Shown in pieces: positions 1-36,396 of a stretch of 64,000 nucleotides of DNA. The notes beneath the pieces are model-generated. The model did no database searches. It saw nothing but the letters and a program-made list of their open reading frames with translations, and was not told where the DNA came from. The position numbers and the translations under genes were made by a program. The DNA is from a virus. Lineage: Duplodnaviria > Caudoviricetes. Where the stretch lies: IMG/VR virus record IMGVR_UViG_3300032116_000166, positions 1,383-65,382 of that record; one strand, 5' to 3'. Every line of letters starts with the position of its first letter. The stretch's first letter is position 1.

Positions 1-1542
1 ACTCTTACAAAAACTTTAAGTACAGTAATACGTACTCCTAGAGTTATAGACAATTTTTTTGATAGAGGTCCACTAAATAGTGAAGGTAGTCCAGAGCAGA
101 TTCCTGAGTTTGCCAGACTAGCTTTAACCTTGCTGAAAGATGCTAGTGGTTTAACTACAAAAATAGAAGCTAGTGATGTTCAAAATTACAAAGAGTGGCA
201 GCTGTACATGAATGAACAGCACATGAAAGGTAATCTAAAGATACCACTAGAACAAGCCTTAGATATTCCGCTTAATTTAGAACAGGCAGAGCCAGGGTTT
301 CCGGAAATTAGTATTGGTGCTTTAAGAAAAGACATTAGTGATTTTGTAAAAAAGCAGCATCGAAGTAATGTATATAAATATAACGCGCTACCAAAAGATT
401 TTGTAAGTACACTCAATAGTTCAGATTTGGAAGTTCGAAAAAAATACTTACCAGCAGTAATACTGGACGATCGTGACGAAGCGATGGCTGTAATGTATTC
501 TACTTTTAATACAACTGCTAATGCTTTGTACGAAAAGTTATTAAATAAAACTATTAAAAAGTATTTAATACAAGCCAACTATGAAAAATCTGGAACAAAG
601 TATAGTCCAGGTTTTGATAGAGGCCATACAATACTTACCGAAAACGGGCAAAAAATAGCAACAACCCCACTATTGGAAAAAATTGATCAAATACTATTTT
701 CAGTAAATGAAAAACTAAAACAACAACAAAGTAGCACAGATAAAACAAAGCTGAAGCTGCTAATAAAAAAAGTAGAAGAACAGAGAGTATCCCTGTTAGA
801 TAAGTCAGTTTTAGGTACTAGAATCAAAGCTAATTTAAATAAAGACTTCAGAAAAACCTTAGCATCATTAAATGCAAATATAGTACTCATACAGGATCGA
901 TTAGAAAATCAGTATGACTATGCCCAAGTAGAGGGAGAGCTATCTAGAAATTTAGCGAAGATAGCAGAACAATTACTAAATGGACAGTTTTCTAGAACTC
1001 TTTTACAGGAAATAGAATACAGAGTTAATAGTATATTTGATGGTAAGTCTTTTCAAACAAATGTATCTGTAAATAAAAAATTGGATTTGAGAGTACCTGG
1101 CAAGTCAAAAGTTAATGTAAAAGTTAATGTTGATCGCATTAAAAGATCTAGTAATAAAAAACCAACAAGTAGACCGAAAATCACTATTCGCGAAACTCAG
1201 AATACGTACAATTTAGTAAATCTACCAATGTTGATGATGCAAATCAATGCCAGTCTGCATGATCAGATAAAGAAAAACATGGGCACCGGTAGTCGACAAG
1301 ATGTTTTAAACTATCGCACCGGTCGTTTTGCACAATCTGCACGAGTAGAGCGTCTCAGTGAAAGTCGTCAAGGCATGATAACTGCTTTTTACAGTTACAT
1401 GAAAAATCCCTACGCAACTTTCAGCCGTGGTGGCCGTCAAGAACGTCCATACACCCGTGACCCTAAACTGCTAATTTCCAAAAGTATCAGAGAACTTGCA
1501 GGAACCCAAGTGGCCAACCGTATGAGGGCAGTATTAGTATGA
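1..1542 (+). CDS. Tail completion protein (T5 p143-like C-terminus) with long N-terminal extension; 5'-truncated by window edge
   Basis: Frame 1 is open from base 1, so the TTG at 130 is not necessarily the start. The C-terminus LNYRTGRFAQS...YSYMKNPYATF...RDPKLLISKSIRELA and the position just before the terminator and tube genes match T5-like p143. DRGH motif at 616-627. Confidence 0.75.
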   Translation, partial: TLTKTLSTVIRTPRVIDNFFDRGPLNSEGSPEQIPEFARLALTLLKDASGLTTKIEASDVQNYKEWQLYMNEQHMKGNLKIPLEQALDIPLNLEQAEPGFPEISIGALRKDISDFVKKQHRSNVYKYNALPKDFVSTLNSSDLEVRKKYLPAVILDDRDEAMAVMYSTFNTTANALYEKLLNKTIKKYLIQANYEKSGTKYSPGFDRGHTILTENGQKIATTPLLEKIDQILFSVNEKLKQQQSSTDKTKLKLLIKKVEEQRVSLLDKSVLGTRIKANLNKDFRKTLASLNANIVLIQDRLENQYDYAQVEGELSRNLAKIAEQLLNGQFSRTLLQEIEYRVNSIFDGKSFQTNVSVNKKLDLRVPGKSKVNVKVNVDRIKRSSNKKPTSRPKITIRETQNTYNLVNLPMLMMQINASLHDQIKKNMGTGSRQDVLNYRTGRFAQSARVERLSESRQGMITAFYSYMKNPYATFSRGGRQERPYTRDPKLLISKSIRELAGTQVANRMRAVLV

Positions 1543-1970
1543 GTAAGCGAACCAGTATTGTAAAAGCCCTGGCAGACAAGTTTAAAGAGATAAATGGTAG
1601 CTCACCCTATTCCATCGACCTATACAACAACAGTTTTAATAAACTGAAGTTTTGGGATGAAGTACAAGATTTTCCTTGTGTTTATGTAACACCAGGAACC
1701 GAAATGAGAGAATACCTTCCAAGTGACTTTAGATGGGGATACTTGGGAGTATGTGTCAAGGTATACTGTAAGGGCGAAGACGCTCAGTCTCAGTTAGAGG
1801 CCTTGCTACAAGACCTGGAGACTTGTATTGATAACAACAGAGTTCTCCAGTATGATGGTTCAAACGAAACCACAGAAATTTTAATAACCAGCATCACAAC
1901 AGATGAGGGATTATTAGACCCCTATGCAATAGGGGAAATAAATCTACAGGTCAGATATCAGGTCATGTAG
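1539..1970 (+). CDS. Tail terminator protein (T5 p142-like)
   Basis: 143 aa; KLKFWDEVQDFPCVYV...E.REYLPS...ITTDEGLL.P signature; ATGA overlap with the upstream gene; directly precedes the tube gene. Confidence 0.85.
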   Translation: MSKRTSIVKALADKFKEINGSSPYSIDLYNNSFNKLKFWDEVQDFPCVYVTPGTEMREYLPSDFRWGYLGVCVKVYCKGEDAQSQLEALLQDLETCIDNNRVLQYDGSNETTEILITSITTDEGLLDPYAIGEINLQVRYQVM

Positions 1971-4162: not shown

Positions 4163-4180
4163 ACAGCGGGCTTTTTTATT
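4151..4180 (+). terminator. Rho-independent terminator
   Basis: AAAGCCCGCT-aaac-AGCGGGCTTT followed by a T-tract. Confidence 0.85.
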
Positions 4181-4199
4181 GCATACAAAAAATAAGGGC

Positions 4200-4228
4200 T
4201 TGACACCACACCCCCATAGTGGTATAAT
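4200..4228 (+). promoter_or_regulatory. Consensus sigma70 promoter for the tape measure/tail-tip operon
   Basis: TTGACA-17 bp-TATAAT with TGn extended -10 and an A-rich UP element. Confidence 0.9.
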
Positions 4229-4280
4229 TTGTAGGTCAAAGTGTCAACACACTAAATTTTTGTCGTTGCCAGGAGAAAAT

Positions 4281-7200
4281 ATGGCAGATAATACAAGTAC
4301 ATTCGTCCTAAAGGTAAAAACCGAAGGCATGGATCAAGCCCAGAGCCAAAGTCAAGCCATTAGGAACAACCTAGAGGGTGCTCAAAGAGCAGCCTCCGGC
4401 ACAGCAACTGGCCGCGTTGCTAGAAGTGCAGCAGCTCAGCCTACTGGTAGAGCCGGGGCATCTGCTGGCGTTTTTACTGGACCAGAAGTAGAAGACTACA
4501 ACAGAGCATCTGGTGCTGCAGGCAAAGCAGGTGGCACAGCTCGTGACTTTGCAGACCAAGCTCGTGGGCTTGGTGGATTGGTACGCCTGTACGCCACTGT
4601 AGCAGCCAACGCATTTGCTGCCGCTGCAGCGTTTGGTGCGTTAAGCAGAGCTATGGATACCAGCAATATGGTCAAAGGATTGGACCAGCTAGGTGCAGCC
4701 AGTGGTGTAGCTCTTGGCAACCTGAGCAAAAGATTGTTTTTAGCCACAGACGGTGCAGTTAGTCTACGTGAGGCCATGGAAGCCACAGCCAAAGCCAGCG
4801 GTGCAGGCCTTAGTAGTGACCAGATCCTAAAGCTGGGTGATGTAGCAAAGAAAGCCTCTCAGACTCTAGGCGTAAACATGACAGACGCTTTAAGTCGTTT
4901 GAGTCGCGGTATTACAAAGTTAGAACCTGAACTATTAGACGAATTGGGTATTTTCGTAAAGATTGACGATGCCGCATCTAAGTATGCTCTTAGCGTTGGC
5001 AAGAGTACTTCAGCCCTAACAGATTTTGAACGTCGTCAGGCTTTTGCGAACGCGGTGTTGGAGCAAGGCAATAAGAAGTTTGGTGAAGTAAATATAGACA
5101 TCAATCCATACACAAAACTAGCTGCGACCTTTCAAAACCTAACACAAACAATCCTTGAGTTCGTAAATAAGGGATTGGCACCCATAGCAAAGATATTTGC
5201 TGACAACTCTGTCCTACTTGGCGCAGCGTTTGCTTTTATAGCTACCAAAGTACTAAAGATGGCCATTCCTGCTCTTGGTGAGTGGCAGACCCAGTTAGTA
5301 AAAACAGCCGAAACTGCAAAAGAAAAAGCGCAAGCAATAAATACTGCCTTCGGTGAGGCTTGGGTAGATCGTTGGGAAAATCGTTTAAAGTTGCCAGAAT
5401 TAAGAGCAGGCGTAAAAGAAGCCGCATCTGAATTGAAAAAGATGGGTTTAGCTTCTGTTTTTGACAAGACTGCTATTGGTGAAGGATATAATGCTTTAAT
5501 AAAAGGCGAAGCACTATCTGCCAAACAAATTGCTGCTACAAAACTGGCCATTACGTCTAATAAAGAAGAAATAATGGCTCTGAGCAGGGTACAAACCGCT
5601 CAAAGCGCAGCTCGCACAGCGGAACTGCAAAAAGAAATCATCCAACTAGAAGCAATTATTGCACTTGAAGCAAAAAGAGCAACACTTAGCTTAGCCGAAA
5701 CTAACATCGGCACTGCAGCAGAAGAGCAGCCCGGATTTTTTAGCGGAGAGGCTCAAAGAAATAGAAGAGCCAAAGGAGCATCTACTACCGCTATAGCCCT
5801 TGCAGAATTGGCAGCAATACCCGGCCAGACCATGGAAAAGGGTTTTGGCGATGCCATGAAAAACATGAAGGCCAATCTTGAAAAGCAAGGTGTTGGGTTC
5901 GTTAAGCGTTGGTCTACACTAGCAGTAGGTGCTCTTGCCAGTGCCACAACCGCCATAGGAACTTTTATAGCCTCCATTACAGCTTGGATTGGCGTGTTTA
6001 TGGCTGTTGGTTTTGCTATCTATGGAGCACTAAAGTACTTTAGTGCCACCAAGAAAGAAAGCGAATTAACCAGTGAAGCAATAACCCGACTAGATGACGC
6101 ATCAAAGAGCGCACAACTTACCCTAGAAAAGTTGTCAATGTCTAAAGACCCACTGGAGTCTTTGAGCGTTCAGACAATACAAGCCAAAGCAAACGCCCTA
6201 AAAGAACTAGGCGACAGCGGAGCACTGGCTGTTAAGAGAGCCTTTGATGAAATATCAAAGATGAATGCCGGAGACCAGTTCTTAAACTGGGTATCAAAAC
6301 TTTGGGGCGGAGACGTACAAACCAAGCTTTCCGAGGGCCTGGCCGACAGCATTAAAAACTCATTCAAACTTGCAGAAGATACAAAACTTACTCAAGAAGC
6401 CAAAAAATCAATAGAAGGTATACTTGGTACATCTATTCAAAGTGCTAACTTGGAACAGGTTATTAAAAAGGTCGCCGCTAGTGGTGATGACGGAAAACTA
6501 AAACAAATAGTAAAAATTATTGAAAGCATGGGCAATGCAGCAGCTATAAGTGCTGCAAAGGGTACCGAGCTAAAAGAAAGTATAGCAAAAGTTACCACAG
6601 GCATTCAGGAATTTAATAGAAGCATAGTTCCAACCGACAGTCTATCAAAGATAGCACAGGATAGTGCTGTAGCAGCTCAAAAGTTGGGCATGGCATTAGC
6701 AGATCCTGTGCAGGCTTTAACAGCAATGAGAGACGTTTCTGGCAGTGTGGACATGTTGAGCATATTCCCTGCAGATGTTGCTAAAAACTTAATGAGCTAC
6801 AATGACGAGCTTAATGCTGTAGCCAACAGTGTGGTTGCAGCAAAAAATGCTACGGCTTCTTATGATAAAGAAATCGAAAATCTAAATAAAGAAATCAAAA
6901 AACTGGGTACGTCAGGCGCTGGTGTTAATACAAAAGCATTGGTTGACCAGTACAAGCAACAAATAGAAGCTATTGAAGCTAAAAAACTAGAATTAAAAGC
7001 CGAAATTGATGCTGATACTGGAAGAATTAAGGGTGTATTTGATCAGGCAGTAAGATCTAGTTTAATCCTATCTGCCGAACAAATGGCCGCCAGACTGGCT
7101 GTTGAGATGAACAAAGCCCAGTCCGTAGTAAAAGGTGCAATGGCCGGCTTATTGGGAGATACCGTAGGCGGTATCAGAATGAGAGCAGAATTAGAAAAGC

Positions 7201-10200
7201 GCTCTATAGATGCCAATATGGAAGCCACAAAGCAGAGCTTTGCCCTAGCCAGTAAAATGGAAGAATTAAAGATTGAAATGGAGCGTAAGAGACTCCAAGA
7301 TGAAAAATTTAATTTACAGTTAATAAAGAAAGAAGTAGAGCAAAGAGGTGGCAGCCTAACTACAGATCAAAGCAATAGACTGACAACTATATCCACAAGA
7401 GAAGCAGAATTGGACAAGATGCAAGCCGGCCTTAGAGGCAGGGGCATGGGTCAGAGTTCTGTGAGTCTTGCAAATGCCGGAGCAAGTGCAGACGTTGTAG
7501 CACTACAGCAAAGATTCGAACAGTTGCGAGTTACTTTAGCTAGTGGGGCCGCGAGCCAAGAAGCAGTAAAAATAAAGGCTAAATTTGAAGAAGATAGAAA
7601 GTCTTTCGAACTAGAACAAAAAAGATTTCAGTTAAGTATAGACACTGCTAATAGTGAAAAAGAAAGAGCAGGAGTACTTTCAACTATATATGGCATAGAA
7701 AATCAAAGTGCCACACTTGCAAAAATAGCCGCAGATGTTAGAGCACAAGACTTAGCAGATGAAAAAGCAAGAAATGCTCTTGTATTTGATACAGATAAAA
7801 AAGCCGAACTCTATCTCAAACTGTTAAATGAACAAACGAAGTCTAAGAAAGCACTAACAGCAGAACAGGAAAAAGAATTAGAAAATTTTAGATTGGCCTT
7901 AGTAGAAAGTGGTGCAGAAGTAGATCGTTTTGACGAAGCCTTAAAAATACGTACTAGAATGCGCGATATTAACAATGAAATATTGCGTATCAGCAGTCAA
8001 ACCGCTGCAGAACAGAAAAAACAAGAATTCGAAAAACAAAGACTTGACACGCAATATGAATTGCAAGAAATAACGTCTAACTCGTTAAAACAAGAATTAG
8101 ATAGTCTTGTTTCACTTGGTAGAGTTGATCAGACGTACGCCGCTAATAGAATTGCTTCTTTATCGTTAGAAGCACAACAAATACAGTACAATAAACAGTT
8201 ATCAGATATTGCAAGTCAAAAAAGAATTCAAGACTTACAGGCTGAAGATCAATATAGAAAAGCCATAGCTGCTGGTGGTAATGAAATCGATGCCATGATT
8301 GAATGGGGAGCACAGACGGCAAAGAACAATGCCCTAACGCAGGATCGTATCGATAAATTAAATGCATCAAATACCCTAGCAGTAAGATCAATAGAGCTTA
8401 CAAGGCAAGGCAGCTTAGAAACAGCAAAACAAAACGAAGAAATCAAACGTCAAGCAGAACTGTTAGGACTATTCACAGGAATAGCAAACACTTTATCAGA
8501 AGCTTTTGGAAAAACCGGAGAGGTATTGAGTAAATTTGTTACCACTTTGGGAGATATTTCTGCAGGTCAAGAAAAGTATAATACTGAACGAGCAAAACAG
8601 GCAAAAATAATTAGTGATATAGCTGCTAAAGAACGTGAATCTATAACAGCCGAAGACGTCGCCCAAGAAACAGAAGCCAAGAAAAAATTAGGTGATCTTG
8701 ATCGTAAGCGTGCAAAAGACGAAATCTCAGACAATGCCAAGTTGATGGGCAGTGTCAAAAATTTATTTAAAGAGAAAACAACCGCGTACAAAGTATTTGG
8801 TGCACTAGAAAAAGCCTTACACATTGCACGACTAGCCATGGATGTAAAAGAGTTGGTTAGCAAGATAACAACTGAAACTGGTAGAACTGCAGCAGCTGTT
8901 ACAGCAGAGGGTACCCAAACAGCTACCGCTGGAGCAGGCTTCCTAGCCAGAGCAGGGCTGTATGTAACAGAAATATTTGCCAAAGTAAGCAGTCAATTGG
9001 GTATATTTGGTCCTCCTATTGCAGCAGCTATAGTTGCAGCAATTGGACTGAGTGCTTTTGGTGGAGGCAAAAAATCAGCCCCCGGTGGTTTTACTGCCGA
9101 AGAGCAACAAAAAGTAGAGGGCACTGGTCGTACCTATGTCGACGGAAAGTTGGTTGACAGAGAAGGCGGCGATCCTGGTGACCGCGAAGCACTTGCAGAC
9201 AGTTTGAGCAAAGCACTAGAAACAGTAAATCAAAATACATTTGAAAATAAAATCTACACAAACAAGACTCTTCCAATCCTGCAGATGATTGAAAGAAATA
9301 CCAGAGACACTGCATATGCTGTTTATAACCGTCTTGGGCCAAATGCTGAAGGTAGCTTAACTAGTACCATTCCTACTGGTAAGACTCGCGAAAACTATCT
9401 TGGCAGTACTGGATCCACCTTGGCAGGGGCAGGATTGGGCGTAGCTGGAGGTATGGCAGTCAGTTCTATGTTTGCTGGTGTAGGCGGAGTGGCTTTAATG
9501 AGCGGCACTATTGGAGCTATTGGAGCTGCAGCAGCAACTGCACTGGGTGGATTATTGCTCCCCGGCCTAGGACTATTATTGGCCAAACCAATAGGTAAGC
9601 TGGTTGGCAAGATAATTGGTGGCGAAACAACTCAGACTATAGAAGACTTTGGTTTATTAGTCACGGGAACATTCGATCAAATAACTGAAGGTGCCAAAGG
9701 TGCTGTACAAGAATTTGCAAATGTAAGAACAGAAATAGATGGCGGTTGGTTTGGCAAAGATCGCGTTAGATATTCAATGCCAACACAAGAAGCCCCAGAA
9801 CTAATAAAAGAGTACATAGGCAATATATTCGAAGGATTCAGAGATATAATTAAATCAACTGGAACCAGTCTGCAAAAAGACGTCAGCGGATTTTTATCTA
9901 CCTTTAAGTTTCCAGAAATAAAGGTTAGTTCAGAAGGCAAAACAGCAGAAGAGTTTGCAAGAGCTTTAAATGCAGAACTGAGCGTTGCATTCAACACAGC
10001 CGCAAAAGCAGCATTCCCAGAATTAGCACAGTTCAAAAAGAGTGGCGAAGAGTTTGGCGAAACTATCATAAGAGTAGTCAACAATCTAGAAACTGCCAAC
10101 TATGCTATGAGGCTGATGGGTAGGGATACCATTACTCAACAAGTATTCAAGAAGTTGGAAGGTGCCACTGTCACTAATTATAAAACTATACCGTCAACTC

Positions 10201-12074
10201 CAGAACGTAGAACTGCCTTAAATGCAAGAGGTGCAGACTACAGCACATATATAGACGATAGCTTTGGCGAAGTCATATTTGAGCGTGTTGTGCGGCCTCT
10301 AACAGACGCGGAAAAGACAATTGAAGCTGTCAGAATTACTGAAGCTTTAGTTGACGGTGCCGGCGGTTTAGATAAGTTTGTAAGTCAAACACAATTCTTT
10401 GCTGATAACTTCTTAACAGAAGCTGAAAGATTAGCTCCTGTACAAGAAGACTTAATAACAAGAATGGACGAACTGGGCCTAAGTTCTATAGACACAATGG
10501 CAGAGTTCAAGAATCTTGTAAATTCTGTAGACTTGACCACAAAAGAAGGGCGTACTCTATATCAAAACTTAATGGATGTACAGTATGCATTTGCAGCAGT
10601 TCACGGAGAGGCAGAAGAGCTATTACGTTCAAAAGTACTGTCTCAACAAATAGAAGGATTAAAGCTGCTTGGAAGAGACCAAGAAGCACTAACCCTTCAA
10701 AGAAACGAAGAACTTGCAGAGTTGGCAAAGTTCCCACCCGCTCACGCAAAGATATTGATAGCAAATCAAAAGTATTTATACGCACTAGAAGATGAAAAAA
10801 CAATCAAAGAAGAAATAGCCAGAGAACAAGAAAAATTAAATACATTTTTAAACAGAACCAAAGACCAACAGTCAACAATTTTTGGATTGTTGGAGGATAC
10901 AAAAAGTGCTACAGATCTAAAGAGATCAAGAGAACTGCAGGATATTATCAAGAATTTCCCTGCTGATCAAGCAACAATAATAACAGCAAATCAAAACTAT
11001 ATCTATGCTCTAGAAGATGAGCAGGACTTAAAGAAAAAACTGATTGCACAAAGGGACAAAGAAAAAACTGCAATTAAGTCAACTATTGACAGTTTGAAAA
11101 CATCAATAACTACATTAAAAGACTATCGCACAAGTCTGCTTACTGGAAACCTAAGTACACTTACTCCAGAAGAAAGGTACGGACAGACCAGAGCAGAGTT
11201 TATGAGGCTACAAGCAATAGCTCTTGGCCCTGCAGGTACTGAAGCCGAAAAAGCAGCACAGTTAGAAGCAGTAAATAAGTTACCACAAGCAGCAAATAGC
11301 TTCTTAGAAGCCTCTAGAACAATGTTTGCAAGTGGTGCTAACTACACAAGTGACTTTAATTTAGTAACTAGTATAGTAGATAAAGTAACTTCTGGATTGG
11401 AAAATCAAAAAACTAATGCTGAATTACAATTAGACGAGTTAGAAAGGTCTACTAGTTTCTTGGATTCTATAGACACTAATACTGCTACTACTGCTGATTT
11501 GTTAACACAATATTTTGCAGCACAAGGTATTTCTGCAAGATTGGCAACTCCAAATAACGCTGGAGAAGATCTGTACTCAGCTGGAATGGATGCATTAGCA
11601 GCCAGAGGTGCAGCAGCAACGGCTAAGAGTAACGCACTAGCTCAGGGTATAACATTGGTAGAAAATCTACCTTCTGTTACACAAGCTGCTGTTACAGGCA
11701 CTGCTCAGGTAGCCCAATCCGCGGTTACAGGTACTGCGGGAGTAGCCCAGGCTGCTGTTACAGGTACTGCAGAGGTAGCGAATGCGGCAATAAATGGTAT
11801 GTTAAGTGAGGGTCCACAACAGGTAACTGTAACAGATCCAATAACTATAAATGATAACAACATAGTTACCGAACTAAGAACTGCAAATACTAATCTAAAT
11901 AGAGCAGTCACAGAACTAGAAAACTTACGAAGAGATCAACAGCAACAAACTGGAGCAATTATTACAAGCAACGCGCAAGTAGTAAATGCAAATGCTCAAA
12001 CAGTTAGCAATGCTGTAAACGATACGCAGGACTATCAGTATTGGTATAGCAGACAGGTAGTAGGTATGCCTTGA
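4281..12074 (+). CDS. Tail tape measure protein (~2597 aa)
   Basis: The start is the ATG at 4281 after AGGAG; the track start at 4179 lies upstream of the promoter. T5 pb2-like N-terminus (GLGGLVRLYATVAANAFA...ITKLEPELLDELGI); Ala/Gln/Glu/Lys-rich coiled coil with hydrophobic segments. Confidence 0.92.
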   Translation: MADNTSTFVLKVKTEGMDQAQSQSQAIRNNLEGAQRAASGTATGRVARSAAAQPTGRAGASAGVFTGPEVEDYNRASGAAGKAGGTARDFADQARGLGGLVRLYATVAANAFAAAAAFGALSRAMDTSNMVKGLDQLGAASGVALGNLSKRLFLATDGAVSLREAMEATAKASGAGLSSDQILKLGDVAKKASQTLGVNMTDALSRLSRGITKLEPELLDELGIFVKIDDAASKYALSVGKSTSALTDFERRQAFANAVLEQGNKKFGEVNIDINPYTKLAATFQNLTQTILEFVNKGLAPIAKIFADNSVLLGAAFAFIATKVLKMAIPALGEWQTQLVKTAETAKEKAQAINTAFGEAWVDRWENRLKLPELRAGVKEAASELKKMGLASVFDKTAIGEGYNALIKGEALSAKQIAATKLAITSNKEEIMALSRVQTAQSAARTAELQKEIIQLEAIIALEAKRATLSLAETNIGTAAEEQPGFFSGEAQRNRRAKGASTTAIALAELAAIPGQTMEKGFGDAMKNMKANLEKQGVGFVKRWSTLAVGALASATTAIGTFIASITAWIGVFMAVGFAIYGALKYFSATKKESELTSEAITRLDDASKSAQLTLEKLSMSKDPLESLSVQTIQAKANALKELGDSGALAVKRAFDEISKMNAGDQFLNWVSKLWGGDVQTKLSEGLADSIKNSFKLAEDTKLTQEAKKSIEGILGTSIQSANLEQVIKKVAASGDDGKLKQIVKIIESMGNAAAISAAKGTELKESIAKVTTGIQEFNRSIVPTDSLSKIAQDSAVAAQKLGMALADPVQALTAMRDVSGSVDMLSIFPADVAKNLMSYNDELNAVANSVVAAKNATASYDKEIENLNKEIKKLGTSGAGVNTKALVDQYKQQIEAIEAKKLELKAEIDADTGRIKGVFDQAVRSSLILSAEQMAARLAVEMNKAQSVVKGAMAGLLGDTVGGIRMRAELEKRSIDANMEATKQSFALASKMEELKIEMERKRLQDEKFNLQLIKKEVEQRGGSLTTDQSNRLTTISTREAELDKMQAGLRGRGMGQSSVSLANAGASADVVALQQRFEQLRVTLASGAASQEAVKIKAKFEEDRKSFELEQKRFQLSIDTANSEKERAGVLSTIYGIENQSATLAKIAADVRAQDLADEKARNALVFDTDKKAELYLKLLNEQTKSKKALTAEQEKELENFRLALVESGAEVDRFDEALKIRTRMRDINNEILRISSQTAAEQKKQEFEKQRLDTQYELQEITSNSLKQELDSLVSLGRVDQTYAANRIASLSLEAQQIQYNKQLSDIASQKRIQDLQAEDQYRKAIAAGGNEIDAMIEWGAQTAKNNALTQDRIDKLNASNTLAVRSIELTRQGSLETAKQNEEIKRQAELLGLFTGIANTLSEAFGKTGEVLSKFVTTLGDISAGQEKYNTERAKQAKIISDIAAKERESITAEDVAQETEAKKKLGDLDRKRAKDEISDNAKLMGSVKNLFKEKTTAYKVFGALEKALHIARLAMDVKELVSKITTETGRTAAAVTAEGTQTATAGAGFLARAGLYVTEIFAKVSSQLGIFGPPIAAAIVAAIGLSAFGGGKKSAPGGFTAEEQQKVEGTGRTYVDGKLVDREGGDPGDREALADSLSKALETVNQNTFENKIYTNKTLPILQMIERNTRDTAYAVYNRLGPNAEGSLTSTIPTGKTRENYLGSTGSTLAGAGLGVAGGMAVSSMFAGVGGVALMSGTIGAIGAAAATALGGLLLPGLGLLLAKPIGKLVGKIIGGETTQTIEDFGLLVTGTFDQITEGAKGAVQEFANVRTEIDGGWFGKDRVRYSMPTQEAPELIKEYIGNIFEGFRDIIKSTGTSLQKDVSGFLSTFKFPEIKVSSEGKTAEEFARALNAELSVAFNTAAKAAFPELAQFKKSGEEFGETIIRVVNNLETANYAMRLMGRDTITQQVFKKLEGATVTNYKTIPSTPERRTALNARGADYSTYIDDSFGEVIFERVVRPLTDAEKTIEAVRITEALVDGAGGLDKFVSQTQFFADNFLTEAERLAPVQEDLITRMDELGLSSIDTMAEFKNLVNSVDLTTKEGRTLYQNLMDVQYAFAAVHGEAEELLRSKVLSQQIEGLKLLGRDQEALTLQRNEELAELAKFPPAHAKILIANQKYLYALEDEKTIKEEIAREQEKLNTFLNRTKDQQSTIFGLLEDTKSATDLKRSRELQDIIKNFPADQATIITANQNYIYALEDEQDLKKKLIAQRDKEKTAIKSTIDSLKTSITTLKDYRTSLLTGNLSTLTPEERYGQTRAEFMRLQAIALGPAGTEAEKAAQLEAVNKLPQAANSFLEASRTMFASGANYTSDFNLVTSIVDKVTSGLENQKTNAELQLDELERSTSFLDSIDTNTATTADLLTQYFAAQGISARLATPNNAGEDLYSAGMDALAARGAAATAKSNALAQGITLVENLPSVTQAAVTGTAQVAQSAVTGTAGVAQAAVTGTAEVANAAINGMLSEGPQQVTVTDPITINDNNIVTELRTANTNLNRAVTELENLRRDQQQQTGAIITSNAQVVNANAQTVSNAVNDTQDYQYWYSRQVVGMP

Positions 12075-19096: not shown

Positions 19097-22000
19097 ATGC
19101 CATATGGTTTTGAAGTTTATAACGAGAATGGCATACTGTTGGCCAACGACACTGATTTTAACTATGGATTGTTAACGTCCGGTATAAGAGGTATAGGGCG
19201 AATCGGATCTCTTACTGCTGTAGTAACTAATACTATAAGATTTGATTCGCAAGTAACAACTACGGATGCTAAACCCTTAATATTTGTTAAATTTACCGAT
19301 CCTAATTATTATGTATCTATATTAAGTTTTTCAAACACATCTGCCTCATTCATATTTGCCAGTGGACCGGGAGGTGTTACTAGTAGCGTCCCCGCCACTA
19401 CAGTATTAAACTTAGAGTACAAAGTATTTGTTCCATTTAATAAGCTACCCGCGTACAACGGAACTGATAGTTATGGATTACATGTGTTCGATTCTGCTAG
19501 CAATAAAACATTTGATTCCAGATACGAATTACCTACAGTAGTTGGTAGCGCGACATGTGCAGCAAATAATACATCTCCAGTAAATGAAACTAGTTCTGCA
19601 CTTCCAAGTGGATACGGTATAAATAATACTTGGGTATGCTTAAATTCTATCGCAGAAGGACGTATAGGAAGTATTGCTATAGGCGGCACTTTACATTCAG
19701 TATATCAAGCCGTAAGAATATCAGGTAATTTTATTTACATGAGTCATATCTATAAACCAGAAGATAGCGCATATTCTGGTAGTTATTATTATGCAAATAT
19801 ACCTAGAACATTTTTGTTGGCGGATCAACCTATTATTGGATATCCACTAAAGCTTTCTTTGTACACCAATCCCTTTTGGACTACTACATCTTGCCAAATA
19901 AATTATGCACTGCAAAACAACGACAGCAGCTGTGTTACATATTTTAAGTATGAAGCCGATGTTTCAGGTGGTAATGGCAATCCTATTTCATACTCTTGGG
20001 CACTGTCTAACAATACTGCCGGATACACGATTAGTAATCCCACAGATAGTTATGTATATGTAACACTACAAAAACCAGCTGGCTCTTATAGCTGTACTTT
20101 GACGTGTACAGTTTCACAGGCCGGCAGTGTGACACAGGTAGTTTCAGTTACACTATCAAGTACACATACAACAAATTTATTAGCTACTGCTACGTTATCA
20201 ATAGATGGAAAAACAAGTCCTTATACTGTCACTGAGGGCGAAACTGTAACTTTTAGAGCTACTACAACGGGTATTCCAAACGGTGATTATATATACTGGG
20301 GATTTGATACCGCAGGTATATCAAATCCAGTAAATTTTGAAGATTTTAACCCAAACACTATGTACGCTCTTGCCAGTGTAAACAATAATCAAGCAACAAT
20401 AACTAAGTATATAACTGCTGGTGCTGTAGAGTCAACAGAACAATTTAATTTTAAAGTTTGGAGAAATGTTAGCGGCGAGCTTCCTCCTACTGGAGTTGGT
20501 CTTATGGCCCAAACATTGGTAAGCGTTGCAAACGCAGTCGTCTCTACTAACTATTCAGTAACATCAGATACAACTTCTGTAAATGAAAGCACCTCTCAGT
20601 ATGTTACTTTTACACTAACATCGACAGGTTTGGCTAATCTCACGCAAGTGTGGTGGAGAATAGAAACTGTTACAGGAACTATTAACTCCAATGACTTTGT
20701 TGACAGTTCAGGAATGAGTGGCAGCGCATACATAGGTCCAGTATGGAACAGTGAAACATTTACATATGATAATCAAACTGCAGCGGTACCAAAGACTATT
20801 AGAGCAGATACTATTACAGAGGGTTCCGAATCTTTTACCGTAAGATTATATTCCGATAGCAGTTTTGTTAATTTATTAGCAACAGGGCCCACAGTAACAA
20901 TAGGCGACACTAGTATAACGCCCACAAGTTATAATCTAACATCTTCAGCAAATAATGTTAACGAAGGTGGTAGTGTAACATTTACAATAGGTGGAACCAG
21001 TATTCCTAATGGTACATACTACTGGGATTTGTCCAATACTACGGATTTTGTTACCAGTAACGGATCTGTCGTCTATCCTACGCCAGGTTCGTTCAGCGTA
21101 ACACCTACCTCTGACTCAACCACAGAAGGTTCAGAATTCTTTACTGCTAGACTTTATAGTAATGCAGCTCGCACTATTCTGCTAGCAACCAGTGCATCAG
21201 TAACTATAAACGATACCAGTGGAACCGCAGTACCTGTAGCGAGCTTTACAAAAACTGCCGCGTCTGGAACAGCGCCGCTTTATGTAAGTTTTACAGACAC
21301 TTCTAGTAATTCCCCAACAAGCTGGTCTTGGAATTTTGGTAACAGTTCAACAAGTACACTGCAAAACCCCAGCAATATACTCTATAATGCAGCAGGTACA
21401 TATACAGTTTCATTAACTGCTTCTAATGCAGGAGGTAGCAGTGCACCAACAACACAGACAATAACTGTTTCGTCCGCTAGTACTAGTATATCTACAACTG
21501 GCGACAGTAACGGAACTGTCGGTACAAGTTATGCAAAACAGTTTTTCTATAACCTAAACGGAAGTACTGTACTTGGTTTATTTTCCTATAGCGGGCCGAG
21601 TATACCAGGACTTAGTTTTGCCGTATTTGGTGGCCCAGGACCTGGTAGTGGGGGTAGTGTTGGCGCTTCACTATCTGGGACTCCTACAACAGCAGGTACA
21701 TATACCTTTACTGTAACCGGATCTGGGCAGGGGTACAGCGCAAGTCAGCAATATACTATAACGATTGTAAACCCTGCTGCACCACTACCAACGGCTAATT
21801 TTACCGCAAGCCCAACTACAGTAACAGTGGGTCAAATTGTGTATTTTACAGATGCCTCTACCAATGCTGTTAGTTGGGAATGGGATTTTAATAACTTTGA
21901 TGGATATGTCAGTACGGTTCAAAACCCTACTAGGATATATACGGCAGCAGGAATATATAGTGTTAAATTGCGAGTAGCAAACAGCGATGGTGTAACCAAT

Positions 22001-22378
22001 ACACTTATAAGAAGTAATTATATTACGGTAAACGCAGCACCTGCCTACAATGAGGTTGTTTACATTGATAATCAAATATCTCAAACCACAGGAACTACTA
22101 CAATCGCAACTGTTTCTACCGCTGTTATATTTAGTATAATAATTTCAGGTGGGCAACCTAATACCAATGCAACATTCTCTGGTGCAAGTGCAGGTACAGT
22201 TACACTGGATGCAAATGGTTCTTTTGTTTTTGGAAATAATCAGCTTCTAGCTCAACAGTACAACTGGACTATTACATTCGCAGGCTCTGGAAATACTCGT
22301 TATCTTCAAATCACTGGTATTACTCCAAGCGGTGGCGGTGGCGGTGGCGGTGGCGGTGGCGGTGGAATTGAACAATAA
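19097..22378 (+). CDS. Tail-tip adhesin with MPYG N-domain, Calx-beta/Ig-like and two PKD domains
   Basis: VNEG..VTFT...D..TEG.E.F..RLY (Calx-like) repeats; PKD signatures FTDTSSNSPTSWSWNFG...STLQNP and FTDASTNAVSWEWDF...STVQNP; poly-Gly C-terminus. Confidence 0.75.
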   Translation: MPYGFEVYNENGILLANDTDFNYGLLTSGIRGIGRIGSLTAVVTNTIRFDSQVTTTDAKPLIFVKFTDPNYYVSILSFSNTSASFIFASGPGGVTSSVPATTVLNLEYKVFVPFNKLPAYNGTDSYGLHVFDSASNKTFDSRYELPTVVGSATCAANNTSPVNETSSALPSGYGINNTWVCLNSIAEGRIGSIAIGGTLHSVYQAVRISGNFIYMSHIYKPEDSAYSGSYYYANIPRTFLLADQPIIGYPLKLSLYTNPFWTTTSCQINYALQNNDSSCVTYFKYEADVSGGNGNPISYSWALSNNTAGYTISNPTDSYVYVTLQKPAGSYSCTLTCTVSQAGSVTQVVSVTLSSTHTTNLLATATLSIDGKTSPYTVTEGETVTFRATTTGIPNGDYIYWGFDTAGISNPVNFEDFNPNTMYALASVNNNQATITKYITAGAVESTEQFNFKVWRNVSGELPPTGVGLMAQTLVSVANAVVSTNYSVTSDTTSVNESTSQYVTFTLTSTGLANLTQVWWRIETVTGTINSNDFVDSSGMSGSAYIGPVWNSETFTYDNQTAAVPKTIRADTITEGSESFTVRLYSDSSFVNLLATGPTVTIGDTSITPTSYNLTSSANNVNEGGSVTFTIGGTSIPNGTYYWDLSNTTDFVTSNGSVVYPTPGSFSVTPTSDSTTEGSEFFTARLYSNAARTILLATSASVTINDTSGTAVPVASFTKTAASGTAPLYVSFTDTSSNSPTSWSWNFGNSSTSTLQNPSNILYNAAGTYTVSLTASNAGGSSAPTTQTITVSSASTSISTTGDSNGTVGTSYAKQFFYNLNGSTVLGLFSYSGPSIPGLSFAVFGGPGPGSGGSVGASLSGTPTTAGTYTFTVTGSGQGYSASQQYTITIVNPAAPLPTANFTASPTTVTVGQIVYFTDASTNAVSWEWDFNNFDGYVSTVQNPTRIYTAAGIYSVKLRVANSDGVTNTLIRSNYITVNAAPAYNEVVYIDNQISQTTGTTTIATVSTAVIFSIIISGGQPNTNATFSGASAGTVTLDANGSFVFGNNQLLAQQYNWTITFAGSGNTRYLQITGITPSGGGGGGGGGGGGIEQ

Positions 22379-32067: not shown

Positions 32068-35000
32068 ATGCCAAAAAATGTTGTTATTACACCACTGAGT
32101 GGATTGGTTGATTTTTATGATGCAGCCAGTAACCTAGACGCCAAAATTCAAATCGATGATGCTGGCAGTTTGAATATCTCAAACAGTGGCGGAACCTTGG
32201 TTTTGGGTAACGCCGCCGCCAACGTTTATATCGGTGATGGTACCAACTCCGTTGACGTTATCTTTGAACAGAACGGGGCTATCAGAGCACTTACTGGTAA
32301 GACTCTTACTTTAGGTAACAGTGCTAGTAATATTGCTGTTCAGTCGCCACTAACAATTAATTCGCAAATATTAAATACTACCACAACTGGTTATTTCGAA
32401 GTTCGTCAAACAGTTAGTAGTTGGGGCAATAGTACTAGCCACCCAATCATCAAATGGGATTATAATGCTACATACGATGATCACTTGTACTTAGCAAGTG
32501 GTGGTAATGCCAGTGGCACTACACAGACTGCACTTGTTGTTACTGAAAACGCAGGTGTAGTAATCGGAGCAGGACCAAGTTCCCCCAACAGTAGTAGTAT
32601 TGTATCAACTGAGTGGTTTCGATTTGACAATAGTAGATTTACTATTTCAAGAAATGCAACTCAGTACCTAACCTTTGAAAATAGCGATACAACAACAAAT
32701 CCAATCATTATTTCCTACACCGCAACAAATAATGCAAAACCAATAATATTTGACAGTAAGACCGATGCTGTCAATACAGCACCCACTGCTGGAACACTTG
32801 GATACGAGTTCAGAGTAAATGGTACAAGTGCCCTAACGGTAAACACAGACAGGACTATTACTACCAACACAAATTTGAGTGTTGGTGGCACCCTCAGTGT
32901 TACTGGCAACTTAACTGTGAACGGCACAACTACTACAGTTAATAGTACCACAGTAACTGTGGACGATCCCATCTTTACTCTAGGTGGTGATACCGCACCA
33001 ACTGTAGACGACAACAAAGACCGCGGAGTTGAGTTTCGCTGGCACAATGGTACTGCCGCCAAAGTGGGTTTCTTTGGATTTGATGACAGTACTGGCTACC
33101 TAACATTTATACCTGATGCCACAAATACCAGTGAAGTTTTTAGTGGTACAATGGGCGACATACAGGCTACCAACTTCCGAGGTGCCCTGATTGGTAATGC
33201 TAGTACTGCAACCAATGTGGCTTGGTCAGGAATTACCAGCAAACCTACTACACTTAGTGGTTTTGGAATAACAGACGCATTCTCCTCTAGTGGTGGTACC
33301 ACAACTGGTAATATAACGATTTCAACGGTTCAACCTGTACTAATTCTTAGAGACACGGACAATTCTGGAACAGGTGTAGGCCAAACAGGCTGGATAAGTT
33401 TTCAAGACAGTGCTGGTACAGAGCGCGCATGGATTGGTTATGGATCCTCTGGGTCTACAGACTTCAACATTAGCAACAGTCGTGGACAAATTACAGCTGG
33501 CGGCAATATAATACTAACTGCTGGTAACTATAATAGTTACAGCCCAACCCTAACAGGTACTGGGGCGACTGGTAGCTGGGCTATCTCAGTTACTAGTGCA
33601 GCTAACCAGTCTTCATCAGATGATAGAATAAAAGCACCTGCTGATGACTTTGCTGCAAACAAGAGATTTGGTTTTACTAGCTGGAACAACAACAATACAG
33701 CCCCATACGCAGATTACTTACACTTAAGAAGCTATACAGATAGTAGTGGCGGAAACGATAATTTGGTAATGTTCCGCAAAGACGCATTAGGAATGAGAAT
33801 ATGGCAGCAAACTTATGGTTCTGCTACTGCTTATTCTACATTCAAAGATGTTGCTTGGACTGATGGTACAAACTCAACTGGTACTTGGGGTATCTCAGTT
33901 ACTGGCAGCGCAGGTTCCGTAGCATGGACTAACGTCAGTGGTAGACCAACAACAGTATCTAGCTTTACCAATGATAGTGGATACATTACAAGTGCTTTCT
34001 CAGGCTTTATGCTCAGAAGTACTTCAGTACAAGCTAACCCCAACACTAATTTTGTAAGCAGCGCATATCGTTTTGATCCCAACGCCAATAACCCTACAAA
34101 TGAACACTACGCAATTGTTACCTACGGTAATGAAAGCAACGTTGTAGGTCAACTTGCAACACACTTCACATCTGGTCAAACTTTTACAAGAGCATACAAT
34201 TCTGCATGGTCTTCTTGGAGAACCTTGTTAGATAGTACCAACTATAACAGCTATTCACCAACCTTAACCGGTACTGGAGCTAGTGGTACTTGGAGTATAA
34301 ACGTTACAGGCAGTGCAGGTAGCGCAGGAAGTGTAGCTTGGACAAATGTTAGTGGTCGTCCATCAACTATTGCAGGACTGCTTGGTACAGATTCAGTAAG
34401 TGCCAACCCCAATGTTAGACTTGGTAGCGGCTACTATCAAAACGATGCTGCTAGTTCTGCAAATAATTGGCCTGTTGGATCTTCAAGTTGGTGGCATCTG
34501 CACAGTGTTACACACAGTAATACTGCAAATTACTATTCTATGCAATTTGCAGCAGATTTTTATGCTAATAATTTATACTATCGTTCCACTAACGGAAGTG
34601 CCGCTACCAGCTGGTCTAGAGTATTACTTGATACAAACTACAATAGTTACAGTCCGACCTTAACAGGTACTGGTGCTAGCGGTACTTGGGGTATCTCAAT
34701 CACTGGTAGCGCGTCATCAAATGTACTAAAATCTGGCGACACAATGAGTGGGGACCTATCCTTCTCAAACGGTAGAAAAGGCCTTGTAGGAGTTTACAAC
34801 GCTTCTCAAACTCAGGCTGTTTTTGCCATGGGATCGTCATACCGATTAACCGACGGTGGAGCAAGTAATGTATATGGTGACTTCTATGGTATGGCTTGGT
34901 CTTATGATCCAGACTACGGTGGTGCTGGAAACAATCCACAATCTAAGGCAGGATTAGCACATCAATTATTGATAATGAATGCTGGTGTGACCAGAACCGC

Positions 35001-36396
35001 CATAGGTAATGGTATATGGACCAGTGGTGCAATTAGTCAGAACGGTAATCAAGTCTTACATGCTGGCAATTATACTAGCTACAGTCCAAGCCTAACAGGT
35101 AGTGGGGCCAGTGGTACTTGGGGTATAAATGTTACAGGCAACTCAGCTACAACGTCTCAAAGAACATTCTCCAATGTTCGTACCGACGGTATTAATAGAG
35201 GTTCTTACGGAGCTATATCAATCGCAGGATCTAGTGGTAGTTATTCAGGTATTGATTTTACTGATGCTTCTGTTACTTTTATGGTCAGAACAAGTGACCA
35301 ACTAACTGGCGTATACAAAAATAACAGTGCTTGGTTGTGGTATTTTGATGGTTCCGGCGTACTACAGGCCGGTTCTATTCCACAAAATAACATAAGCGGT
35401 GGTAACTTAGTCTCAGTACTGCAACCAACTCACGGTGATAGCGGAAGATTAATACAGTCACTCAATGCCAGTGCCGGTAATGCCGTACAGTTTTATATAG
35501 AACATAACTTAGCCAATGTAGCCATAGGCAATTCACGCGGCAATATCAATATAGCTGCTGGATCATTACTACACGGTGGCAACCAAGTCTTACATGCAGG
35601 CAACTATACTAGTTACAGCCCTAGTCTTACTGGTAGCGGTGCTAGCGGTACTTGGGGTATTAGTATTACAGGTAATGCTGCTACAGCAACAACTGCTTCT
35701 AATACTACTGCTGTTGCCGGATATGATATTAGCTGGGGATACGTTGCTGGAGCTCCTTATTATATCTGGGGAACAGCAAGCGGTACAGGTACAACCAGAG
35801 TATATGCTGCTAGTGAAGTAAGTGTTGGAACCGCTACGTATTCCACATATGTAGGAAGCTCCAGCCTATGGACAACAGGCGGCCAAGATCTATACGGTCG
35901 TTCAAAGCGAGTAGCAGTAGCCTCTGTCGGTAACGTAGTATACAACTACGGTGGCGACTTTACTAATGCAGAAATTCAGAGTTCTTTATTAGTTACTGGA
36001 AACGTTACAGCCTATTCTTCGGATCGTAGATTAAAAACCAATGTCAAGCCTATCGACAATGCTTTGACAAAGATCTCCAAATTGTCTGGATTTACTTTTA
36101 ACTGGAACGATACTGCTAAAACTTTGGCTAAGTATGACACAGAAAAAGTAGAAGTAGGCGTTTTTGCACAAGATGTTTTAGAAGTACAGCCAGAAGCAGT
36201 CAAATCGGCACCTTTCGATGTACACTATGAAACAGGACAGTCTATATCAGGCGAACACTATTTAACGGTACAGTACGACAGACTTGTTCCGCTTTTAATA
36301 GAAGCAATAAAAGAGTGTTCAAACTATCTGGATAAACAAGAGGCCAGAATCAATAAACTAGAAGACATGTTAATGTCTTTATCAACAAAGGAATAA
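32068..36396 (+). CDS. Long tail fibre with peptidase S74 intramolecular chaperone
   Basis: VTAYSSDRRLKTNV..I.NAL.KI.KL.G.TF.WN...G.FAQDV..V.PEAV...LVPLLIEAIKE; knob-like domains separated by repeated linkers. Confidence 0.88.
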   Translation: MPKNVVITPLSGLVDFYDAASNLDAKIQIDDAGSLNISNSGGTLVLGNAAANVYIGDGTNSVDVIFEQNGAIRALTGKTLTLGNSASNIAVQSPLTINSQILNTTTTGYFEVRQTVSSWGNSTSHPIIKWDYNATYDDHLYLASGGNASGTTQTALVVTENAGVVIGAGPSSPNSSSIVSTEWFRFDNSRFTISRNATQYLTFENSDTTTNPIIISYTATNNAKPIIFDSKTDAVNTAPTAGTLGYEFRVNGTSALTVNTDRTITTNTNLSVGGTLSVTGNLTVNGTTTTVNSTTVTVDDPIFTLGGDTAPTVDDNKDRGVEFRWHNGTAAKVGFFGFDDSTGYLTFIPDATNTSEVFSGTMGDIQATNFRGALIGNASTATNVAWSGITSKPTTLSGFGITDAFSSSGGTTTGNITISTVQPVLILRDTDNSGTGVGQTGWISFQDSAGTERAWIGYGSSGSTDFNISNSRGQITAGGNIILTAGNYNSYSPTLTGTGATGSWAISVTSAANQSSSDDRIKAPADDFAANKRFGFTSWNNNNTAPYADYLHLRSYTDSSGGNDNLVMFRKDALGMRIWQQTYGSATAYSTFKDVAWTDGTNSTGTWGISVTGSAGSVAWTNVSGRPTTVSSFTNDSGYITSAFSGFMLRSTSVQANPNTNFVSSAYRFDPNANNPTNEHYAIVTYGNESNVVGQLATHFTSGQTFTRAYNSAWSSWRTLLDSTNYNSYSPTLTGTGASGTWSINVTGSAGSAGSVAWTNVSGRPSTIAGLLGTDSVSANPNVRLGSGYYQNDAASSANNWPVGSSSWWHLHSVTHSNTANYYSMQFAADFYANNLYYRSTNGSAATSWSRVLLDTNYNSYSPTLTGTGASGTWGISITGSASSNVLKSGDTMSGDLSFSNGRKGLVGVYNASQTQAVFAMGSSYRLTDGGASNVYGDFYGMAWSYDPDYGGAGNNPQSKAGLAHQLLIMNAGVTRTAIGNGIWTSGAISQNGNQVLHAGNYTSYSPSLTGSGASGTWGINVTGNSATTSQRTFSNVRTDGINRGSYGAISIAGSSGSYSGIDFTDASVTFMVRTSDQLTGVYKNNSAWLWYFDGSGVLQAGSIPQNNISGGNLVSVLQPTHGDSGRLIQSLNASAGNAVQFYIEHNLANVAIGNSRGNINIAAGSLLHGGNQVLHAGNYTSYSPSLTGSGASGTWGISITGNAATATTASNTTAVAGYDISWGYVAGAPYYIWGTASGTGTTRVYAASEVSVGTATYSTYVGSSSLWTTGGQDLYGRSKRVAVASVGNVVYNYGGDFTNAEIQSSLLVTGNVTAYSSDRRLKTNVKPIDNALTKISKLSGFTFNWNDTAKTLAKYDTEKVEVGVFAQDVLEVQPEAVKSAPFDVHYETGQSISGEHYLTVQYDRLVPLLIEAIKECSNYLDKQEARINKLEDMLMSLSTKE

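Follow-up and report, generated by a model that had tools for sequence, protein, structure and literature searches.

The first gene in a 64,000-nucleotide stretch of viral DNA (the window; bases 1383-65382 of the 65,382-base linear viral record IMGVR_UViG_3300032116_000166, which is estimated to be 62% complete) encodes a long form of the T5 tail protein p143. Its source is an uncultured T5-like siphophage. The long form carries an N-terminal module in which a few polar residues are nearly invariant, and two short motifs within it resemble the signature of the DRGH nucleases. We hypothesized that these residues form a functional, nuclease-like (His-Me-type) metal-dependent site, and we put the probability of this at about 0.35. 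This reading is favoured because the polar residues are invariant across much of the family, the motif match rises above its controls, the predicted local structure is suitable, and positions in the two motifs covary.

The complete open reading frame (ORF) is 553 amino acids (aa) long. Its ATG lies 120 nucleotides (nt) upstream of the window start, one base after the stop codon of the head-completion gene, and a full-length residue number is the window-frame number plus 40. The original prediction, made from the window alone, had the ORF running on upstream and the p143 likeness confined to the last ~110 aa. Both points are borne out by the 553-aa ORF and by the C-terminal position of the PF25747 and hhalign matches. 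The parts of the protein are as follows, in window coordinates:

1..1542, plus strand: the long p143-family tail protein gene (553 aa in total, with the first 40 codons upstream of the window, at L001:1263-1382 in the parent record)
28..435, plus strand: lineage-specific insertion (~135 aa, aa ~50-185), which the query shares with just its three or four nearest relatives
610..627, plus strand: GFDRGH (aa 244-249), a predicted strand with His249 as its last residue; across the family the motif reads GFD[VIL]GH
667..867, plus strand: helical segment between the motifs (aa 263-329), four helices by DSSP of the models, two of them long bundle helices
877..933, plus strand: predicted strand NIVLIQ ending in Gln338, then a long helix with Asn343, Tyr347 and Glu351
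988..996, plus strand: F-S-R, with Ser371 as the fourth near-invariant residue of the module (82/84; 117/119)
1066..1215, plus strand: variable, strongly basic linker (aa ~396-445), predicted to be disordered
1195..1539, plus strand: C-terminal domain common to T5 p143 (aa 439-553)

The first motif, GFDRGH, occupies window-frame aa 204-209 (nt 610-627). The second, NIVLIQDRLENQYDYAQVE at nt 877-933, contains the pattern Q-x4-N-x3-Y-x3-E, and both were located by script where they had originally been reported, with the codons for His, Asn and Glu at 625, 907 and 931. Across the six frames of the 64-kb window, DRGH occurs once and the composite pattern once. The chance of such a pair, calculated from the protein's own composition, is ~1.3e-6 per 553-aa protein. 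The motif pair alone proves little, because so large a scan should turn up a few pairs like it.

To follow the residues through the family we used three alignments: A2, with 84 homologues that are 26-68% identical to the query; a wider set of 139 rows, made up of the query and another 138 homologues, each 430 aa or longer; and A3, a combined alignment of 119 sequences. In A2, G248 is found in 82 sequences, H249 in 81, Q338 in 78, N343 in 80, E351 in 78 and S371 in 82. Ahead of residue 440, just ten positions are conserved at 90% or more, and these residues occupy six of them. H249, N343 and E351 are the residues on whose conservation the original prediction had been made to depend. The counts in A3 are 118 for G248, 117 for H249, 116 for N343, 117 for S371, 101 for Q338 and 88 for E351 (of 119). 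The wider set keeps the GH pair in 137 of 139 rows and N343 and S371 in 135 each. The Gln-Asn spacing is constant at 5 throughout A2, and the Asn-Glu distance is 9 in 45, 8 in 25 and 7 in 6 of the 84 sequences. The claim that the spacing is identical to that of the nucleases thus holds in the query lineage and lapses across the family.

For comparison with the Endonuclease_NS nucleases, we took 25 genuine PF01223 domains from 61 genomes. Their consensus reads GyDRGH, then ~17 residues, then sPQ.p..NrgiW..lE, with RGH in 24 of the 25 domains, in agreement with the earlier statement that these enzymes use DRGH plus Q-x4-N-x3-W-x3-E. According to one structural account, the His of DRGH nucleases is the catalytic base, the Asn is a direct metal ligand and the Glu positions metal-bound waters; the same account describes NRGH as a variant of the motif and notes that Asn and Glu stand further apart in Spd1 and EndA (PMC3258162). 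What the long p143 family has in common with PF01223 (Serratia nuclease, Anabaena NucA, EndoG, EndA and Spd1) is a G-aromatic-D-x-G-H sequence at the end of a strand and a Q-x4-N-x3-aromatic-x3-E sequence that runs from a strand end into a helix, with the same residues conserved. However, the motifs are ~25-30 residues apart in the nucleases and 72-124 apart in the long p143 family, a central sheet there contrasts with a four-helix bundle plus small sheet here, and outside the query's subfamily the Glu is present in only 48 of 139.

Aligning the family with the PF01223 profile by hhalign returned the two motifs, in co-linear order, as the top two matches. The first places aa 242-251 on GyDRGH (score 27.8-27.9, P 0.0013-0.005, probability 7-31%), and the second places aa 335-356 on sPQ..N..W..E (score 19.5-19.8, P 0.03-0.08, probability 1-3%). 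By comparison, when the match columns were shuffled 100 times the best score averaged 12.0 +/- 2.3 (maximum 18.7) without any second match, and a reversed-profile control scored 13.3. Seven unrelated phage-protein profiles reached top scores of 8.8-15.1 against the nuclease profile and 8.4-18.4 against the middle region of the family, and none of these 14 comparisons listed any second match. With the 138 homologues outside A2, query excluded, the same two matches were recovered at weaker scores (20.4 and 9.6). Because both matches beat the controls and recur in these 138 homologues, the motif-level likeness to Endonuclease_NS is, as judged from the profiles, real and family-wide, and it is far from proof of homology.

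Predicted structures provide a setting for these residues. The AlphaFold2 model of the query (84 sequences) has a mean predicted local distance difference test score (pLDDT) of 85.2 and a predicted template-modelling score (pTM) of 0.65, and that of a 436-aa homologue with 38% identity (119 sequences) has 90.1 and 0.67. The order of elements agrees between the two models, and the motif blocks reach pLDDT 95-97; the insertion at aa 50-185, which gave no family match, has pLDDT 59-88 in the query model. In both models the module is a four-helix bundle with a small beta sheet. On the N-terminal side the query has strands at 192-195 and 201-206, a helix at 209-221 and a strand at 245-249 that ends at His249, as the corresponding strand of the homologue (151-155) ends at its His. 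A short hairpin (252-254 and 257-260) and helices at 263-281, 285-308, 310-316 and 321-329 come next. Strand 333-339, with Gln338 one residue before its end, leads directly into helix 340-366, which carries Asn343 in its first turn and Glu351 two turns on, on the same face, and which is one of the long helices of the bundle. A helix at 374-386, the disordered basic linker and the C-terminal alpha/beta domain complete the chain. In the models, the local setting of each residue fits what a His-Me site requires.

Covariation points to contact between the two motifs. We ran a mean-field analysis on a MAFFT alignment of 119 sequences (33,019 pairs), in which pairs between the two motif segments make up 1.1% of all pairs. 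D246-R340 ranked 2, G244-R340 ranked 11, D246-Q344 ranked 23 and K240-V350 ranked 36. In A2, Arg or Lys stands at position 340 in 52 of 69 sequences with D246 and in 0 of 15 without it, counts that ignore relatedness, and the wider set shows no such association (p 0.42). Since D246-R340 and neighbouring pairs covary, the alignment suggests that the His strand packs against the start of the Asn helix. Columns that hardly vary also gave couplings (H249-N343, H249-S371 and M1-G248), which were set aside as artefacts and not counted.

Several observations weigh against a His-Me-type site. The hhalign probabilities are low, at most 31%. At E<=10, no Pfam nuclease model matched the query, nor did any match in a six-frame search of the whole record, while control genomes did give matches; no nuclease appeared among the 25 families listed when 84 members were scanned singly. 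The Arg of the motif is present in 4 of 84 sequences in A2 and 8 of 119 in A3, with Val, Ile or Leu at position 247 in 72 of 84, so that the complete DRGH signature originally described does not exist at the level of the family, whose consensus is D[VIL]GH. In the wider set, Q338 falls to 94, E351 to 48 and D246 to 54 of 139. The His and Asn are separated by 72-118 residues in A2 and by 73-124 in the wider set, never by a short distance, compared to roughly 20-30 residues in solved His-Me nucleases. Finally, Ser371 has no counterpart in the nuclease motif, and a late-expressed, non-specific nuclease would need inhibition beside the phage DNA, for which no inhibitor was identified.

The overall fold also counts against this reading. 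There is no contiguous beta-beta-alpha unit in the models, because the helix that follows the His hairpin, 263-281, lacks the conserved Asn. The intervening helices had been taken for an insertion into such a unit, but the spacer has at least 72 residues in every sequence and contributes to the four-helix bundle, and it is not dispensable. Foldseek against the PDB gave nothing at E<=0.001; the best values, 0.16 for the query and 0.046 for the homologue, are of a size that the tool's own note places in the noise range for helical models. The PDB matches listed by VIA-align, in a wide search on both models and a second look on the homologue, are four-helix bundles. Across the five PDB searches with the two whole models, neither Endonuclease_NS nor any other nuclease was among the matches listed, whose 50 rows are filled by helical bundles, and a small local likeness may have escaped these whole-model searches. 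The BFVD search likewise had no nuclease among the matches listed: at E<=0.001 it returned uncharacterised homologues only, and the weaker rows listed include T5-type tail completion proteins. The NucA/EndoG-like fold that the original prediction looked for was thus not among the fold matches listed for two confident models. What stands of the proposed nuclease fused to a tail protein is the conservation of the named residues, the match of the motifs to PF01223 and the fitting local structure; the nuclease family or fold itself went undetected. The protein is not an Endonuclease_NS member and should not be filed there.

How, then, might the conserved residues be explained otherwise? One possible alternative, to which we would give somewhat long odds, is that the His/Gln/Asn/Glu/Ser cluster is non-catalytic, a buried hydrogen-bond network or structural metal site that locks the sheet to the bundle. 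The N-terminal module would in that case extend the tail protein for a structural, adhesive or membrane-active purpose. On this explanation the DRGH likeness, which exceeded the shuffled, reversed and unrelated-profile controls, would be coincidental.

We think it improbable that the cluster is instead the active site of another enzyme at the tail tip, for example an envelope or capsule hydrolase or lyase that uses His249 together with Ser371 and/or Asn343. Such an enzyme could give a role to Ser371, which is as well conserved as the His and Asn (82/84, 135/139 and 117/119) and is left unexplained by the nuclease model, and it would be consistent with the lower conservation of Glu351 and Gln338 in the wider family. 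In addition, p143 of T5 is placed at the tail tip (PMC11784142), a common site for enzymes that attack the cell envelope. However, the protein matches no hydrolase or lyase family in Pfam, NCBIfam or PHROGs, no fold match to hydrolases or lyases is among the matches listed, and the alignments have no nucleophile motif such as GxSxG around Ser371.

It is very unlikely that the module is a true, highly diverged Endonuclease_NS homologue with a helical insertion in its beta hairpin. The GFDxGH and Q-x4-N-x3-aromatic-x3-E sequences of the query and its subfamily speak for such descent. Against it are the missing hidden Markov model match, the lack of any structure of that family among the fold matches listed for two confident models, the loss of the Arg in 80 of 84 sequences, a spacer that is always at least 72 residues and belongs to the bundle core, and the hhalign result, in which the sheet of the nuclease finds no partner in the sequence before the GH motif. 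Pure chance in one sequence, meaningless for the family, is scarcely credible, since even though a very large scan should contain a few pairs of this kind, these residues hardly vary among 84, 119 and 139 homologues, and the conservation counts contradict it.

The C-terminal part of the protein is the one that T5 p143 also has. PF25747 (T5_p143) matches aa 475-515 with 27.6 bits against a cut-off of 27 (E 2.7e-6; profile positions 161-207 of 255), and it is matched by 84 of 84 homologues, with a best E of 1.1e-14. With hhalign, aa 439-548 fall on residues 127-247 of a 255-aa T5-type p143 (probability 96.3), and the T5-type protein gave no alignment to the query outside those residues, its N-terminal domain included. 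T5 p143 (PF25747; PHROG 3725, ‘tail completion or Neck1 protein’) is thus homologous over the C-terminal ~110 aa and sits in the same gene slot, between the head completion and tail terminator genes, but T5-type proteins are 255-260 aa long and lack the N-terminal module of the query. By these profile matches, the long protein is a member of the p143 family through its C-terminal domain only.

The model of one homologue (m243cf8fafb2f) gave weak Foldseek matches to RbfA and Era (E 0.05-0.07, probability up to 0.95), over ~110 columns of a model part that is not stated, with template-modelling (TM) scores by target of 0.21-0.46. The C-terminal KH domain of Era has the RbfA fold. If the matched part is the p143 C-terminal domain (window 1195-1539), a KH-like nucleic-acid-binding fold would be worth attention.

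Where the protein sits in the virion bears on what an enzyme there could do. The original prediction placed it at the head-tail junction, a location that rests on gene order and is at odds with the published position of T5 p143, at the tail tip rather than the neck. In the T5 cryo-electron microscopy (cryo-EM) papers, no density is left for p143 in the proximal tail, and an unsymmetrised map has one p143 copy at the base of one monomer of the baseplate hub, placed by fitting an AlphaFold model at 6-10 Å (PMC11784142, PMC10038345). The density is gone after binding of the FhuA receptor, and the authors suggest that p143 detaches and may act actively in infection (PMC11784142, PMC10038345). The neck protein called TCP (tail completion protein) in DT57C is a 155-residue homologue of the terminator and not p143 (PMC10713586). 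The tail completion proteins gpZ of lambda and gp16.1 of SPP1 share the genomic slot and the PHROG label; gp16.1 is described as required to route DNA into the cell (PMC11099176), and the predicted structures of gpZ and gp16.1 share a fold from which T5 p143 stands apart (PMC11784142).

On this basis we can outline how a His-Me-type site would work in the long protein. The C-terminal ~110 aa, the p143 domain, would presumably anchor the protein to the tail. If it is anchored as in T5, on the side of the baseplate hub, the tail tip would expose the N-terminal module and lose it at adsorption. This module of ~400 aa, which T5 lacks, would bring its polar, near-invariant residues together at the junction of sheet and bundle, where they may form a phosphodiesterase site of His-Me type on a new scaffold: His249 would serve as general base, Asn343 as a Mg2+ or Mn2+ ligand, and Gln338 and Glu351 would order the water shell of the metal. 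The adjacent linker varies in sequence and length across the family and is always basic (median length 41 aa; K+R 0.23, D+E 0.04), and it may help to hold nucleic acid. A tail-borne enzyme of this kind would have extracellular or host nucleic acid as its substrate, during adsorption or afterwards. Tentatively, and with doubts about the chain as a whole, we propose that the tails of a large, uncultured group of T5-like phages bear a metal-dependent nuclease of a novel structural type, with His-Me-like catalytic residues set on a four-helix bundle. It would be tethered by the basic linker to a p143 anchor, freed at the cell surface on receptor binding, and would cut extracellular or host nucleic acid as part of infection.

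No fusion of this kind had been known to the original prediction, yet nuclease precedents exist in phage-tail-like particles. Tme of the Streptomyces davawensis contractile injection system (CIS) is an effector related to tape measure proteins; it has a DRGH domain of EndA-like type and its activity depends on Mg2+. Pne1 of the metamorphosis-associated contractile structures (MACs) is a second nuclease effector of a tail-like particle (PMC11126660). As would be the case here, part of a tail-like machine bears a nuclease of DRGH type, and the machine delivers it (PMC11126660). The differences are that Tme and Pne1, as described there, have recognisable EndA-like folds and demonstrated Mg2+-dependent activity and ride in the tube lumen of bacterial contractile systems, whereas the carrier here is a p143-type protein of a siphophage and the nuclease is a candidate from sequence and models. 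Our literature search for virion- or tail-borne nucleases returned CIS examples only.

The long form is not peculiar to this phage, and metagenomes contain it commonly. A word-indexed search found 190 homologues of 304-968 aa, and the best 120 of the 190 all carry PF25747. When 1.84 billion cluster representatives were searched exhaustively, 2,100 matched at E<=0.001, 967 at E<=1e-10 and 445 at E<=1e-30, and many homologues are 430-650 aa long. Eight clusters with NCBI or JGI records were looked up, and all are unnamed or annotated as hypothetical protein. In 11 of 11 viral contigs examined, the long gene lies between a head completion gene of ~190-200 aa and a terminator gene of ~143 aa, and the same slot holds it in L025, a contig from a metagenome bin. 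No cultured or named long form was present in the collections searched, and no literature search was aimed at long p143 forms. With tblastn, 111 of 50,697 phage records matched; the 15 rows listed cover aa 476-549 only, and none of the 111 records covers at least 80% of the query. When the whole records of two cultured T5-like phages were searched with the profile, the C-terminal domain alone came up (ORFs of 258 and 263 aa; model positions 319/337-448). Because there are 2,100 representatives, the gene slot is constant in the contigs examined and these two cultured phages have the C-terminal domain only, we conclude that the long form is a new, widespread and uncultured variant of p143.

The middle domain (aa 186-400) was not found alone or in a different fusion among shorter proteins, in a search limited by its word index that did not extend to longer proteins. 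Among proteins of similar length, the word-index-limited search found it in only four close relatives. A PDB sequence search with the A1 profile yielded nothing beyond chance adaptin rows (E ~1), NCBIfam gave no match, and the ESM Atlas returned by features only the protein's own family and by structure TM<=0.32 (pLDDT of the Atlas model, 0.42). A candidate Endonuclease_NS match on the same contig as a p143 homologue was rejected, as it lies on a different contig. Six loci (L021-L026) are on short contigs that have the head-tail gene order of this phage but come from metagenome bins assigned to Bacteroidetes, Saccharibacteria, Verrucomicrobia and Parcubacteria. These contigs seem to be of phage origin and to have been binned together with bacterial ones, and the labels give no reliable clue to the host.

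Around the gene, the order is that of a T5-like virion module: the C-terminus of the major capsid protein, head completion (PF24163), the p143-like gene, tail terminator and major tail protein, then two tail assembly chaperones and a tape measure protein of 2,631 aa. The rest of the window holds tail fibre genes and a minus-strand replication module (DNA polymerase, primase, helicases, SbcCD, exonuclease and ribonucleotide reductase). Individual features, in window coordinates, are:

1539..1970, plus strand: tail terminator gene (PF23818, E 6e-39), whose start overlaps the stop of the p143-like gene
4179-12074, plus strand: tape measure protein, with no Pfam match at E<=1e-4
19097-22378, plus strand: 1,093-aa ORF with PKD domains (E 2.5e-26) and a weak Calx-beta match
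32068-36396, plus strand: 1,442-aa fibre with a C-terminal Peptidase_S74 intramolecular chaperone domain (E 6.7e-17)

The tail of this phage may be about twice as long as that of DT57C, because its tape measure protein has 2,631 aa, whereas in a table of the DT57C paper the coiled coil at the C-terminus of that phage's tape measure protein spans residues 1192-1227 (PMC10713586). In those of the relatives L006-L019 whose contigs extend further upstream (e.g. L006:274-2262), the ORF directly before the head completion gene encodes 599-662 aa, compared to 1,392 bases (~463 aa) for the major head protein gene of a cultured Vibrio phage. By position this ORF is the counterpart of the capsid gene, and its product may be a fused or extended capsid protein. 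Cultured T5-like phages usually have tRNA clusters; none was found in window 1-64000 of this incomplete record, and no Rfam family reached its gathering score in the same range.

The role of T5 p143, and of tail completion proteins generally, is unsettled, and the cryo-EM papers describe the T5 protein as mysterious and unexpectedly placed at the tail tip. The long form offers a direct handle on function, because its added module of 400 residues has a few invariant polar residues. If their site is a nuclease, a siphophage virion would carry an enzyme of a new fold class, which would hint at what p143-type proteins do after leaving the tail, a first function for p143. If it is not, the same residues still mark where to mutate.

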